Shown here: in pieces, positions 1,344-8,565 of the stretch
Numbering within the stretch: the stretch's first letter is position 1
Layout: each line of letters starts with the position of its first letter
Origin: a virus
Virus record (IMG/VR): IMGVR_UViG_3300044655_001360
Length of the DNA: 64,000 nucleotides
Strand: one strand, 5' to 3'
Program-made: the position numbers and the translations under genes
The notes under the pieces: generated by a model
Told to the model about the DNA's origin: nothing
The model's input: the letters and a program-made list of their open reading frames with translations, nothing else
Database searches by the model: none

Positions 1344-1634
1344 TTAATCATCTTTTAGATCTCGAACTGGCATAGTAACTGCTTCGCTTTCGTTTTTGTC
1401 CCATTCTATGAAGTGCATTCCGTGTGGGCGCACTTGCATTGCATCCAATCCAAGGTCCTCGGAAGTCCAGTACCAATGATTGACAGCTGATGTGACTTGA
1501 TTTGCGTGAAAATAATCTATATCAGGTAAATGCCAACCGGTTTTACCATCGATATTAAGACAAAAACAATAAAACTTGGCTTCATACCAATTCAAATCGG
1601 ATTTCCAATATTCTTCAGGTGCTATCTCAATCAT
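1344..1634 (-). CDS. DUF1566/Lcl-like (CLec-fold) small protein, paralog 1
   Basis: EIAP...W.EAKFYC..LNIDGKTGWHLP...YWTS...PVRDL motif pattern. Confidence 0.8.
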   Translation of the reverse strand: MIEIAPEEYWKSDLNWYEAKFYCFCLNIDGKTGWHLPDIDYFHANQVTSAVNHWYWTSEDLGLDAMQVRPHGMHFIEWDKNESEAVTMPVRDLKDD

Positions 1635-1894
1635 CTTTTAATTCTCGAGAAAAATCTAGGGTGAATAAGACAAAGTATTCTATTAAATATAGTTGGTTCA
1701 ATATCTCTAACTGGTACTAGATGAAATTCGCAAGGACTATGTTGTAAATCATCATTTTGGTACCACATAACATGTTCAATGGCTTTGTATTCGTCAAGAG
1801 TTGGCAGTCTCCAACCATCACCTAAACAAAAACAATACAAAACAGCATCTACATACGACATTCGGTTTTCTGGTGGTTTTCCTACTTCAATCAT
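1631..1894 (-). CDS. DUF1566/Lcl-like small protein, paralog 2 (C-terminal amphipathic tail)
   Basis: DAVLYC..LGDGWRLPTLDE...PVRDI. Confidence 0.75.
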   Translation of the reverse strand: MIEVGKPPENRMSYVDAVLYCFCLGDGWRLPTLDEYKAIEHVMWYQNDDLQHSPCEFHLVPVRDIEPTIFNRILCLIHPRFFSRIKR

Positions 1895-2150
1895 CGGTTA
1901 TATCTCGCACTGGTATGGTATTCGAAACTTCATTTGTATTACTTTCACCCTCGCTATCCCAAAAAAGATAGCATGAACTTCTCAGTTGATTAAATTGCTC
2001 CCACAGAGTCACACCAATTAAGGCATGTTCTGCGCTAGTCGGTAATCTCCAACCAGTCTTACCATTAATCGTAAGAGAGAAGCAATACATCTTAGCTTCA
2101 TCGAATGTTAAATCTTTCCAGTATTTCTCGTTTGCAAACTCAAAGTTCAT
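1887..2150 (-). CDS. DUF1566/Lcl-like small protein, paralog 3
   Basis: Start reset to MNFEFANEKYW by homology with siblings; EAKMYC..INGKTGWRLPT...PVRDI. Confidence 0.75.
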   Translation of the reverse strand: MNFEFANEKYWKDLTFDEAKMYCFSLTINGKTGWRLPTSAEHALIGVTLWEQFNQLRSSCYLFWDSEGESNTNEVSNTIPVRDITDD

Positions 2151-2365
2151 GTTATATCTCGCACTGGGGTTACTGGTAATGGTTCTGGACATTGCTCGTT
2201 TAAGTACCAACCTCGTATGTTATAATGGTATTGAAATTCTTTGTCAGTCGGCATTCTCCATCCAATCTTACCATCGATGTTCAATGCAAAGCAATATAGC
2301 AATGCCTCGTCGTATGTTAACCAATTTTCCGATGTAGGTGCTATTTCAATTTTTGATTTCATCAT
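2147..2365 (-). CDS. DUF1566/Lcl-like small protein, paralog 4
   Basis: EIAP...EALLYC..LNIDGKIGWRMPT...PVRDI. Confidence 0.75.
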   Translation of the reverse strand: MMKSKIEIAPTSENWLTYDEALLYCFALNIDGKIGWRMPTDKEFQYHYNIRGWYLNEQCPEPLPVTPVRDIT

Positions 2366-2658
2366 CTTTTAGATCTCACGGCTCTAACCTTATTTTTACT
2401 TTCACGATGGGCATGAAACTGGTGGTGAATTCCTCGATACGCGAAGCCTTTTTGAACCCAAATGCTTACATCACCCCATTCTTCGCTAGTCCAATAATAA
2501 TCATTACCATTGAGAAAATCAACCATTATATTCAACTCTTTCTTGGTTGGCAACCGCCATCCTGTTTTACCATCTATACGAAGAGCAAAACAATACAACC
2601 TGGCATCATTCCAGTTGGCTAGTATCTCGGTTTCTTTAGGTGCTATTTCGAATTTCAT
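2362..2658 (-). CDS. DUF1566/Lcl-like small protein, paralog 5
   Basis: WNDARLYC..IDGKTGWRLPTKKEL...YYWTS...VRAVR. Confidence 0.8.
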   Translation of the reverse strand: MKFEIAPKETEILANWNDARLYCFALRIDGKTGWRLPTKKELNIMVDFLNGNDYYWTSEEWGDVSIWVQKGFAYRGIHHQFHAHRESKNKVRAVRSKR

Positions 2659-2945
2659 AGTAAATCCCTAACTAACCTAGTTCTAATCTTATCATCAAGT
2701 TTATTTGCCTTGTGAAAACTGTTTGACAAGAAACTTTTAACCCAGGCGCGTGTGGTATCAATCTCGGTCGAAGACCAATACCAACCATCGAAATCGTTAT
2801 CGGATTTCCAAATTTCACTAAATTCGTTTTTAGAAGGTAATCTCCATCCGATCTTACCATCGATATTAAGAGAAAAGCAATACAATCGGGCATTATCCCA
2901 GTTGGTTCGGATCTCAGTAGATTTTGGTGCTATTTCAAAGTTCAT
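2655..2945 (-). CDS. DUF1566/Lcl-like small protein, paralog 6
   Basis: Start reset to MNFEIAPK; WDNARLYC..GWRLPS...YWSST...AW...RLVRD. Confidence 0.8.
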   Translation of the reverse strand: MNFEIAPKSTEIRTNWDNARLYCFSLNIDGKIGWRLPSKNEFSEIWKSDNDFDGWYWSSTEIDTTRAWVKSFLSNSFHKANKLDDKIRTRLVRDLL

Positions 2946-3208
2946 AAGATTTCCAAACATTCTACAATTACGTTTTCAGAATCATCGCCTCTAAAGCGAT
3001 TGCAAGAACGGGCATAAGACTCAGCATCTATACGATTGCCATATACCTTGTGGATTTCATTACCAAACTCATTGCAACAAACCCAAACAACATCTAGTTT
3101 TTCAGAACGACTCTCTATTTCACCCCATTCGGAATCGCCTGCGTTACGATGCGCAGTTAACCCAGTGGAATCTTTGCGTATATAAACAGTATGTTGGTGG
3201 TATTTCAT
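2942..3208 (-). CDS. Hypothetical protein
   Basis: Start reset to MKYHQH because a promoter lies at 3237-3264 and AGGA precedes this ATG. Confidence 0.55.
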   Translation of the reverse strand: MKYHQHTVYIRKDSTGLTAHRNAGDSEWGEIESRSEKLDVVWVCCNEFGNEIHKVYGNRIDAESYARSCNRFRGDDSENVIVECLEIL

Positions 3209-3236
3209 GTTGGTTCCTATTAGTTGAGTTTTGCGT

Positions 3237-3264
3237 ATTATAACTAAAAGATAACTGATGTCAA
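3237..3264 (-). promoter_or_regulatory. sigma70-like promoter with a CTAAAAGATAA box in its spacer
   Basis: TTGACA-16 nt-TATAAT; spacer contains the recurrent box; drives the left DUF1566 block. Confidence 0.7.
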
Positions 3265-7183: not shown

Positions 7184-7533
7184 AGGATTTCTCTATATCC
7201 GTTCCATTTGTAGATCAACCTACCAAACCAACCGACTTCTGGTAGGGTTCTAACTGGGACTACCAAACGTGGAGTATTAAGTTCGTAGTCATTGATAAGT
7301 GGCCATGGTAACGACCAACAATCACGTAAGATAGTATAACCATCAGCACTCCAACAACCACGGTTAGAAGCCCATTCCTCGTAATCTATGGATTTCGTAA
7401 TCTTATGCAATTCGTTGGTGGTTGGTTCACGCCAGCCTACCTTACCGTCAATGTTAAGGGAGAAACAATACATCTTTGCTGTATTTTGTGGCATTTTAAC
7501 CTGATATTCGGGTGGTGCTATTTCGATGTACAT
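7180..7533 (-). CDS. DUF1566/Lcl-like small protein, paralog 8 (C-terminal amphipathic tail)
   Basis: EIAP...AKMYCFSLNIDGKVGWREPT...VVPVR. Confidence 0.75.
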   Translation of the reverse strand: MYIEIAPPEYQVKMPQNTAKMYCFSLNIDGKVGWREPTTNELHKITKSIDYEEWASNRGCWSADGYTILRDCWSLPWPLINDYELNTPRLVVPVRTLPEVGWFGRLIYKWNGYREIL

Positions 7534-7856
7534 AGTCGGTTAATAATCCGTTTGAAGAGATTTGGAGTTTTGAAAATAGGTTGTTTAGTTCTAATTGGCA
7601 AAACCAAACATTTACTACTAACCCGTGAACTGGTGCAACCACCTCTGCCTTTTTGTAAGTTAATGTAAACATATCTGAACTCAAGACGAGGAGGTTCACT
7701 AGTCCAATAAGGGCCTTCAAATCTAAATTCAGCAACTGAGAGTTCAAGGAATTCTTTTTCTGTTGGTAAACGATAACCTAGCGTGAAGCAATAGAATACT
7801 GCTTCATCGTAGGGTAGGCGAGTCCAATACTTTTCTGGTGCTATTTCGATGTTCAT
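7518..7856 (-). CDS. DUF1566/Lcl-like small protein, paralog 9 (C-terminal amphipathic tail)
   Basis: Start reset to MNIEIAPEKYW; EAVFYC..LGYRLPT...YWTS...VLPIR. Confidence 0.75.
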   Translation of the reverse strand: MNIEIAPEKYWTRLPYDEAVFYCFTLGYRLPTEKEFLELSVAEFRFEGPYWTSEPPRLEFRYVYINLQKGRGGCTSSRVSSKCLVLPIRTKQPIFKTPNLFKRIINRLCTSK

Positions 7857-7872
7857 ACGGTTTTCCTTAATA

Positions 7873-7894
7873 GCTCGCACCTAGCGGTGCTCGC
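7873..7894 (+). repeat. REP-like hairpin repeat
   Basis: Identical to 6496-6517. Confidence 0.8.
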
Positions 7895-7900
7895 GTTGAT

Positions 7901-8212
7901 TCAATTATCTTTTAGATCTCTCACTGGTCTAACTCCTAGTATTTCATGTGATTTCCCACCAGTTGAATGATATCCCGTGTCGAAAAGTGAGTAACAATAC
8001 ACGCAGTTATTATCATAGTCTACCTCAGTAGATGACCAGTAATACCCACCCAGTACAAAATCACTGTCTATTTTTCTTATTGACATCAATTCATCAATGG
8101 TTGGTAATCGCCAATCATTTTTCCCATCGATATTAAGAGAGAAACAATACAGTTTAGCATCACTCCACGTAAGTCTTGTTTCGGTTGATTTAGGTGCTAT
8201 TTCAATATTCAT
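7901..8212 (-). CDS. DUF1566/Lcl-like small protein, paralog 10
   Basis: LTWSDAKLYC..LNIDGKNDWRLPTIDEL...YWSST...VRPVRDL, closest to the canonical DUF1566 consensus. Confidence 0.85.
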   Translation of the reverse strand: MNIEIAPKSTETRLTWSDAKLYCFSLNIDGKNDWRLPTIDELMSIRKIDSDFVLGGYYWSSTEVDYDNNCVYCYSLFDTGYHSTGGKSHEILGVRPVRDLKDN

Positions 8213-8268
8213 GTGATTCTCGATTGGTTGTTATGTTTCAAGTAGTCTAAAAGATAATGCGAACAAAG

Positions 8269-8565
8269 TCAACTATTATCTTTTAGATCTCTCACTGGTC
8301 TAGCGTAACGAATGTGTTCTTTAAAGCTATGAGATCCCAGTTCGGAATGCCAGTTGTAGCATACTATCCAGTCGCCATCGTCGTTGGAAGTCCAATACCA
8401 TTCATCGGAACTTTCAATGTTTTGTGATTTTAGAAACTCTTGTTCCTTATTGGTAGGTAAACGCCATCCAATTTTCCCATCAATGGTCAACGAAAAACAA
8501 TATAATTTAGCATCTTCCCAGTTCAATTCTTTTTGGAATTCAATAGGTGCTATTTCGATGTTCAT
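8269..8565 (-). CDS. DUF1566/Lcl-like small protein, paralog 11
   Basis: LNWEDAKLYC..IDGKIGWRLPT...YWTS...ARPVRDL. Confidence 0.8.
   Translation of the reverse strand: MNIEIAPIEFQKELNWEDAKLYCFSLTIDGKIGWRLPTNKEQEFLKSQNIESSDEWYWTSNDDGDWIVCYNWHSELGSHSFKEHIRYARPVRDLKDNS

Follow-up and report, generated by a model that had tools for sequence, protein, structure and literature searches.

We have analyzed a stretch of 64,000 nucleotides of DNA from the IMG/VR virus record IMGVR_UViG_3300044655_001360, called the window below. Between positions 1344 and 8565 lies an array of 11 small paralogous genes that we name w1 to w11. All lie on the minus strand and encode proteins of 72-117 amino acids (aa), and they form two blocks of mostly overlapping genes, block 2 running from w11 to w7 (8565 to 6848) and block 1 from w6 to w1 (2945 to 1344). 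An initial annotation had described 11 diversified paralogs in two blocks at this place, and this is confirmed both by reading the open reading frames (ORFs) and by a family hidden Markov model (HMM) run over the 64 kb, which matched those 11 genes and nothing else (E values of 4e-8 to 1e-38). The evidence indicates that the genes encode minimal C-type-lectin-like domains of a family that arose from the targets of diversity-generating retroelements (DGRs), and that no DGR is writing these 11 copies now.

The genes are tightly packed. ATGA-type overlaps or overlaps of 8-16 nucleotides (nt) link w6-w5-w4-w3-w2-w1, w9-w8-w7, and a mini-ORF to w11, and gaps occur only at w11/w10 (57 nt) and w10/w9 (45 nt). 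The 11 paralogs are 30-46% identical on a shared framework (EIAP; A..YC..L.IDGK.GWRLPT..E; YW[ST]S; PVRD), and the segment from WRLPT to PVRD differs between them in both sequence and length. Coordinates of the genes and of the features around them are collected in Table 1.

Table 1. Genes and other features in and around the array. L007 and L013 are related contigs; dN/dS is the ratio of nonsynonymous to synonymous substitution; Lcl_C is the Pfam family discussed in the text.
Feature	Position	Strand	Description
w11	8269..8565	-	98 aa; Lcl_C paralog; L007 ortholog 94% identical, dN/dS 0.16
w10	7901..8212	-	103 aa; top Lcl_C match; modeled protein; L007 ortholog 96% identical, dN/dS 0.11
w9	7518..7856	-	112 aa; divergent, GK.GW loop deleted, PIR end not PVRD; family HMM E 1e-13; L007 ortholog 91% identical, dN/dS 0.36
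w8	7180..7533	-	117 aa; C-terminal extension; L007 ortholog 72% identical
w7	6848..7183	-	111 aa; Pfam 32.6 bits; L007 ortholog 86% identical, dN/dS 0.19
w6	2655..2945	-	96 aa; Pfam 38.4 bits; likely ortholog in L013
w5	2362..2658	-	98 aa; Pfam 32.9 bits; VRSKR end
w4	2147..2365	-	72 aa; short form, long variable hairpin absent
w3	1887..2150	-	87 aa; paralog
w2	1631..1894	-	87 aa; short form with unrelated tail; family HMM E 4e-8
w1	1344..1634	-	96 aa; last gene of block 1; metagenome homologs 76-82% identical
Hydrophobic mini-ORF (MFYTLTF...DFLTDFE)	8562..8642	-	26 aa; first gene of block 2; stop overlaps w11 start (ATGA)
95-aa ORF	6534..6821	-	no known family; ends block 2; L007 ortholog 85% identical
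88-aa ORF	2942..3208	-	no known family; heads block 1; end overlaps w6 start; 88-aa L007 ortholog, dN/dS 0.16
Opposite-strand island splitting the array	3437..6452	+	intein-interrupted PhoH (3437-4996); SegE-like GIY-YIG endonuclease (5148-6452; Pfam)
Block-2 early-type promoter	8674..8701	-	TTGACA-N16-TATAAT, 12/12 consensus; 12-mer ATTATCTTTTAG in spacer
Block-1 early-type promoter	3237..3264	-	TTGACA-N16-TATAAT, 12/12 consensus; TTATCTTTTAG in spacer
22-nt hairpin element GCGAGCACC-GCTA-GGTGCGAGC	7873..7894	-	between w10 and w9

The proteins had been assigned to the DUF1566/CLec (Lcl) fold, and profile searches and structure prediction agree with this. In a Pfam scan of w1 to w10, w10 (55.4 bits) and w6 (38.4 bits) exceed the gathering score of 34.9 bits for Lcl_C (PF07603, DUF1566); w5, w7, w1, w3, w4 and w8 give sub-threshold matches of 17-33 bits, and w2 and w9 have no Lcl_C match. 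A family profile compared with the PDB finds the C-terminal domain of Legionella Lcl (8q4e) with an E value of 6.5e-8. The AlphaFold2 (AF2) model of w10 has a predicted local distance difference test (pLDDT) score of 91, and its top Foldseek match is 8q4e_A, with a template-modeling (TM) score of 0.75, an E value of 5.7e-6 and 29% identity, followed by snake-venom C-type-lectin-like proteins. Among the predicted viral structures of BFVD it matches DUF1566 proteins that stand alone and large fiber-like proteins at their C-terminal tips. A complex prediction with three copies of w10 scored 0.00, which speaks neither for nor against trimerization.

The family also contains short forms of 68-87 aa in which most or all of the variable region (VR) is missing. 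The AF2 model of w4, made with an alignment of 28 short forms including w4 itself, has a pLDDT of 93.6. The two helices and the closing strands are kept, and the long β-hairpin is gone. Structural matches to this model are weak and fall on compact lectin-like domains (vaccinia A33, the Link module and the Lcl C-terminal domain), with a TM score of 0.71 to 8q4e at a non-significant E value.

No 15-residue segment exceeds 1.1 on the Kyte-Doolittle scale in any paralog, and the proteins therefore have no signal peptide, as had been noted before, and no membrane anchor. Seven of the 11 carry a net negative charge, three are basic and one is about neutral. Taken with the models, the 11 genes are best described as encoding minimal, leaderless C-type-lectin-like domains of the Lcl_C/DUF1566 family.

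The clamp loader encoded in the window shares 53% identity with its counterpart in Pseudomonas phage PA5oct, 47% with the one in Agrobacterium phage Atu_ph07 and 62% with the one in G003, an IMG/VR genome of 372 kb that is complete and has terminal repeats. From these identities we take the window to be part of an uncultured jumbo myovirus. The phage is present in the samples JGI 3300046819, JGI 3300059473 and SRR27430846. Megablast of positions 1000-9000 against 50,697 phage records gave no match, and neither did an exact 40-mer search of IMG/VR; a search from w1 for sequence beyond the left end of the window led to nothing but a 1.5-kb contig. The window has 11 copies of the family. L007, a contig whose nucleotide identity to the window is 85-90%, has at least 13, and G003 has at least 43, grouped in three clusters toward the ends of the genome. 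PA5oct, Atu_ph07, RsoM2USA and Phosso have no more than one weak match each. Metagenomes contain hundreds of stand-alone homologs of about 97 aa, often several to a large contig, with the framework conserved. The family is an expansion specific to an uncultured jumbo clade related to PA5oct and Atu_ph07.

The origin of the variable segment can be read from relatives. In 19 copies on related contigs the hypervariable codons change at positions 1 and 2 and carry a position-specific C or T at position 3, and the invariant W, Q, G and K codons are fixed. Ordinary evolution does the opposite; a fixed third base beside changes at the first two positions is the typical mark left by AAY codons in a template. 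The third bases match those of the inferred template at 73-100% in 16 of the 19 copies and at 53-60% in the remaining three. From the copies we predicted a degenerate template, which matched 117 IMG/VR contigs. The contexts read among them held non-coding template repeats of the AWNQNFNNGNQNNNNK type, and a reverse transcriptase (RT) was present in five of five contigs tested. Used as the true template, 115 IMG/VR templates were rejected, with 22-43 mismatches at non-A sites to each of the relatives' VRs (25-53% of such sites) in ungapped comparison.

The AT-rich pattern carrying the clade's own third bases matched one metagenome contig, L159, on which the order is VR, bAvd, template repeat (TR), RT. 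Homologs of the L159 Avd led to L160 and L161, which have the same cassette. The template core is TGGAATCAGAAT-TTC/ATG-AAYAATGGNAAC..., and the ATG variant, found in one template of L160/L161, accounts for the alternation of F and M among the VRs. The VR of L159 differs from its own TR at 22 of 50 adenines and at only 1 of 70 other positions. Against the same template the best of the relatives' copies differ at about 40-55% of adenines and at 4/69 to 8/68 of non-A positions, and some 20 copies differ from the TR almost only at adenines. The layout YWSSTE..AW.Q.F..G.Q....K.....YVRA.R is clear in about 20 of the relatives' copies. In the bona fide targets of L159, L160 and L162 the terminal ...GTTAGAGCCACCCGGAGATCAAC precedes a GC hairpin, and some of the other relatives' copies have a similar 3' end followed by a dispersed hairpin element. 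L160 belongs to the clade of the window, because its end is 80-87% identical to window positions 869-1255 and it carries the hairpin element of the clade together with three exact copies of an 11-mer, TTATCTTTTAG, that is typical of it (expected 0.017; 53 kb of unrelated AT-rich phage DNA contained none). We conclude, on the strength of these sequence patterns, that the family descends from DGR variable proteins of the CLec2 class.

Other sources of the template were sought. The AT-rich pattern had no match in 185,579 species genomes, and a host-chromosome source of the template was therefore not found. Among IMG/VR contigs, L163 has the nearest relative of the clade RT; it ends at the RT and carries no family gene. 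No RT was found in nine IMG/VR fragments with family arrays; all except G003 are small and hence uninformative, and in the complete G003 genome no RVT_1 domain was found.

The 11 copies in the window lack the adenine fingerprint of their relatives. Compared with the L159 template, w10 mismatches at 35% of A and 33% of non-A positions and w6 at 40% and 38%; the remaining copies mismatch at 42-58% of non-A positions, which is the level of noise, and similarly at A. The fraction of codons with a pyrimidine third base (NNY) is 0.56 in the VRs, 0.52 in the N-terminal halves and 0.56 in the genomic background (p = 0.18 for VR versus N-half). In the variable segments of the extra copies of L007 it is 0.69, and in the copies of a further relative, L006, 0.71. 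At 15 columns of template type, window copies share the third base of the template in 8-60%. Remnants of the VR layout are seen as YWSST..AW in w6 and YWSS in w10; in the other copies the VR has been deleted or cannot be aligned. The 3' ends of the window copies read ...GTGAGAGATCTAAAAGATAAT, with a hairpin behind w10 alone. The initial annotation had seen no DGR machinery here, and this too stands: Pfam finds no RVT_1 in 20 window ORFs, which comprise nearly all those of the minus strand above 250 aa apart from a 2404-aa ORF at 46793-54007 and nested plus-strand ORFs, and no template-like repeat was found in the 64-kb window.

Selection on the genes can be measured by comparison with L007, which has the same five block-2 genes. 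The five ortholog pairs give dN/dS values of 0.11-0.36, like those of the neighboring dCMP deaminase and PhoH, from which we conclude that each copy is maintained. The pooled value is 0.11 for the N-terminal and 0.36 for the C-terminal halves. Variation is thus not spread evenly, which upholds the earlier claim of a hypervariable C-terminal segment. The C-terminal half of w8 has changed fastest. It has a synonymous divergence (dS) of 0.86 and third-position changes dominate, which indicates an old allele or recombination, not hypermutation. The lack of an adenine fingerprint together with purifying selection argues that a DGR is not writing the 11 copies now.

The array is not invariant between relatives. 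L007 has eight further copies (11740-14727 and 18424-19097), none with an ortholog in the window. Two of these follow the 88-aa ORF at the place of w6 and w5, and no ortholog of w6 was found at the same position of L007. Judged from these comparisons, the diversity of the window genes stems from old divergence together with gain, loss and replacement of whole genes. A gradient can be seen across the clade, from freshly written to hard-wired copies, with the window array at the fossil end. The proposal that the array was diversified by duplication and shuffling, or else by a remote DGR, thus needs to be recast. Both have contributed, at different times: the bAvd-TR-RT cassettes in the clade support a DGR origin of the family, and the part that would have a DGR writing these 11 genes at present falls away.

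Each block was said to have its own sigma70 promoter, and we find one that matches the consensus at 12 of 12 positions ahead of each (Table 1). By simple arithmetic about 0.004 perfect sigma70 sites are expected per 12 kb. The block-2 promoter is identical or near-identical in L013, L017, L023 and L007. Further copies of the 22-nt hairpin, of the type GCGAGCACC-GNTA-GGTGCGAGC, are dispersed at about 6500-6525 (after the 95-aa ORF), 3312-3338, 8796-8821 and 5036-5061, and the element is common to the window, L006, L007, L160 and L161. In relatives it often stands 3' of DGR-written copies, where true DGR targets carry the GC hairpin.

The 11-mer TTATCTTTTAG occurs 47 times at up to one mismatch, against 2.65 expected, between positions 137 and 44531 and most densely in 1-13100. 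It lies in the spacers of consensus promoters and also 10-25 nt upstream of several start codons, and its reverse complement forms the codons of a C-terminal LKDN/LKDD in w11, w10, w5 and w1. It is present at 0.3-0.8 per kb in closer relatives and absent from G003, and it may be a regulatory or junction element specific to the clade.

Repeated promoters, the 12-mer and hairpins are thus present in the array, and gene content differs from L007 and L013. T4-type phages have hyperplastic early regions in which cassettes of promoter and stem-loop (PeSL elements) mediate gene shuffling. The window array resembles these regions in its small early-type genes, its repeated promoters and hairpins, and the differences in gene content between close relatives, which may map to those junctions. 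It differs from them in that a single protein family fills the region.

What might these proteins do? The reading that we prefer, and consider probable but well short of assured, is that the array is a hard-wired set of small binders that act inside the cell, derived from an earlier set that a DGR had generated. The initial annotation had likewise suggested an intracellular library of ligand-binding domains, for instance anti-defense or host-protein binders, and as to function this is still a proposal. Our confidence in its descriptive and evolutionary part is much higher than in its functional part. Host RNA polymerase would transcribe the array early from the sigma70-consensus promoters. We suggest this because the promoters are perfect and of host type, and by analogy with PA5oct, a phage that needs the RNA polymerase of its host, has promoters of the form TTGAC/TATAATA and carries small genes close to the terminal repeat that are expressed early (PMC7318152). 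The products, having no leader, would remain in the cytoplasm. A conserved N-terminal helix-strand core would present a gene-specific C-terminal β-hairpin face, and each paralog may be a small binding module for a different host or defense molecule; this binding role is proposed from the analogy to the fold and to DGR targets at large. The short forms of 72-87 aa would have lost most or all of the variable hairpin.

Several observations sit less easily with such a repertoire of binders. Binding, cytoplasmic location and early timing are all things that we infer. The phage occurrences of the domain in BFVD include tail-fiber tips, which would fit a role related to the virion, and short forms without the variable hairpin suit a pure library of binders poorly. 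The third base of the template is matched at 9 of 15 columns by w7 and at 6 of 15 by w6, and these two could retain a faint residue of DGR writing. Finally, the window covers only part of the genome, and a DGR may therefore lie elsewhere in the same phage.

The closest described proteins belong to category d of the DGR variable proteins, with Legionella LdtA as prototype. This category (DUF1566/DUF823/Fib_succ_major) includes all CLec2 VRs, roughly half of its members are short proteins with DUF1566 alone, and tandem arrays of up to eight targets are reported (Wu et al. 2018, PMC5758913). Since short DUF1566-only DGR targets are thus a described class, to call the array an undescribed system, as was done at first, is too strong. 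The wider family shares with CLec2 proteins the domain itself and the layout of its C-terminal VR, and in relatives the differences, confined to adenines, from a template that stands next to bAvd and an RT. The 11 window genes are unlike them in having neither template nor RT in the window and no adenine fingerprint; in phages the RT (and Avd) usually lies within 50 kb of a DGR variable protein, and the RT scan of 20 ORFs of the window was negative. They also lack lipoprotein or export signals and stand behind early-type promoters in a jumbo phage of lytic type. Copy numbers in the family, from 11 to at least 43, are far above the reported target arrays, and it includes 68-87-aa forms with the VR mostly or wholly missing. 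What is distinctive here is the type of phage, the copy number, the early-type context, the absence of export signals, the lost link to a DGR and the short forms without a VR.

The C-terminal domain of Legionella pneumophila Lcl (8q4e, the founder of PF07603; PMC11162425) is the best match in both sequence and structure, and neither it nor the array proteins have disulfides or motifs for calcium or carbohydrate. The Legionella protein is secreted and is a surface-bound trimeric head on a collagen stalk, the basic surface of which head binds sulfated glycosaminoglycans (PMC11162425). The array proteins by contrast stand alone, without leader, collagen or coiled-coil stalk, and 7/11 are net acidic. 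With Mtd of Bordetella phage BPP-1 (CLec1) they have in common a phage-borne C-type-lectin scaffold whose C-terminal face tolerates massive variation, and the BPP-1 logic of diversification by TR, Avd and RT is the same in the clade member L160. Mtd, however, is a 381-aa trimeric tail-fiber tip with a different class of VR and is the one adjacent target of its DGR, whereas the window genes specify free proteins of 8-13 kDa, in many copies, that are not currently diversified.

The first alternative is that the proteins are virion-associated adhesin modules, either receptor-binding tips or decoration proteins supplied in trans to fibers. It draws on the occurrence of the same domain as the C-terminal tip of large phage fiber-like proteins in BFVD, on tail proteins being most of the phage DGR targets (PMC8144416), and on three window proteins with N-termini of the Mtd_N type. 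We nevertheless think it rather unlikely. The genes stand behind sigma70-consensus promoters in a region of small genes by those for nucleotide metabolism and replication, apart from the structural genes. They have no N-terminal domain for anchoring or trimerization, and the 72-aa forms have no variable face. Moreover, G003 has its dozens of copies close to the ends of its genome, and in PA5oct most genes of the long terminal repeat are early (PMC7318152).

A second alternative, that a remote DGR in the same jumbo genome still rewrites the C-terminal halves of the 11 genes, seems to us very improbable. A matching cassette does exist in the clade (L159, L160 and L161), DGR targets need not be adjacent (PMC5758913), and the hairpin after w10 resembles those found behind some freshly written copies in relatives. 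Yet the mismatch of the window copies to the template is as high at non-A positions (33-58%) as at A, and there is neither enrichment of NNY or NNC codons nor a position-specific identity of third bases. Orthologous proteins are 86-96% identical, with one at 72%, in a strain of 85-90% nucleotide identity, third-position changes dominate and dN/dS is 0.11-0.36. Nor do the 64 kb contain a template, or an RT in the 20 ORFs scanned.

That the genes are functionless, neutral passengers of a recombinogenic cassette system (junctions of promoter, 12-mer and hairpin, with homing endonucleases) is suggested by the repeated elements that flank them, by the different copy numbers in close relatives and by the GIY-YIG endonuclease island that splits the array, but is hardly credible with 11 of 11 frames intact in two strains at dN/dS well below 1, confident models for a long (w10) and a short (w4) form, and a framework kept across hundreds of metagenomic homologs.

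Our preferred reading of hard-wired binders can be extended to a cycle, which we regard as speculative and rather doubtful. The DGR of the clade would make new cytoplasmic lectin-fold binders against targets of host takeover or defense proteins, and useful variants would be fixed as extra copies that escape rewriting. The window array would then be an archived "memory", and the short forms without a VR might be decoys or scaffolds.

Phage DGR targets are commonly seen as tail-fiber tips by which host range is switched. In these giant phages the scaffold recurs in dozens of free mini-proteins that have no leader and are apparently expressed early. Among 224 jumbo phages surveyed in 2021, no DGR-type lectin domains were reported (PMC7824862), which suggests that the family has a function not yet seen in cultured phages. 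Should the proteins bind host or defense molecules, the family would be a natural library of compact intracellular binders, in which hypermutation feeds a stable repertoire of genes. Taken by itself the window is more modest, a conserved array of paralogs with unknown target.

Small free lectin-fold DGR targets are also common outside jumbo phages, as indicated by L044, L069, L082, L110, L156 and other IMG/VR contigs of 30-60 kb. These are temperate-phage contigs with a DGR and leaderless DUF1566-type targets of 115-130 aa that carry the motif ...GGELPTRREQ...YWSS...AW.Q.F..G.Q...RARAVRR.

The array has neighbors of its own. The mini-ORF is kept in seven related loci with substitutions that preserve its hydrophobicity, and it is translationally coupled to w11. 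The 88-aa and 95-aa ORFs that flank the blocks have no match to a Pfam, PHROG or PADLOC family, and comparison of the two showed them to be unrelated; PADLOC also gave no match for six of the paralogs. The PhoH/GIY-YIG island is also present in L007, with a diverged endonuclease. Besides the PhoH gene (3437-4996, plus strand), the ribonucleotide reductase large subunit gene of the window contains an intein (43502-45679, minus strand). The clamp-loader gene of L007 has an apparent intein-type insertion of about 1.9 kb (6950-8669), and the 311-aa gene of the window is intact without it.

Directly downstream of the array, at 837-987 on the minus strand, lies a full-length Polynucleobacter-1 RNA (Rfam RF01718; 68.3 bits against a gathering score of 37), preceded by two consensus promoters (1337-1309 and 1254-1226). 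This RNA could be a sign that the host belongs to the freshwater Burkholderiales. L160 has the region at 80-87% identity, and between its RT and its RNA locus of this type lie a sulfotransferase, a large glycosyltransferase/methyltransferase fusion and a 318-aa gene (2505-7079); in the window it is the end of the lectin array that adjoins the RNA locus.

Three fiber-like proteins on the minus strand of the window (32367-35021, 54009-55640 and 55691-57202) have an N-terminal domain of the Mtd_N type, the first alone exceeding the Pfam cut-off, and no variable region or template was seen in the three. The second and third are paralogs that share 73-79% of their nucleotides over some 600 nt, and the former has a pectate-lyase-like β-helix. 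The 2404-aa ORF (46793-54007, minus strand) contains many diverged tandem repeats of about 306-312 nt and 258 nt. It is probably a large virion or fiber protein, because similar repeat units recur in proteins of 1256 aa and 761 aa encoded at 13412-19520.

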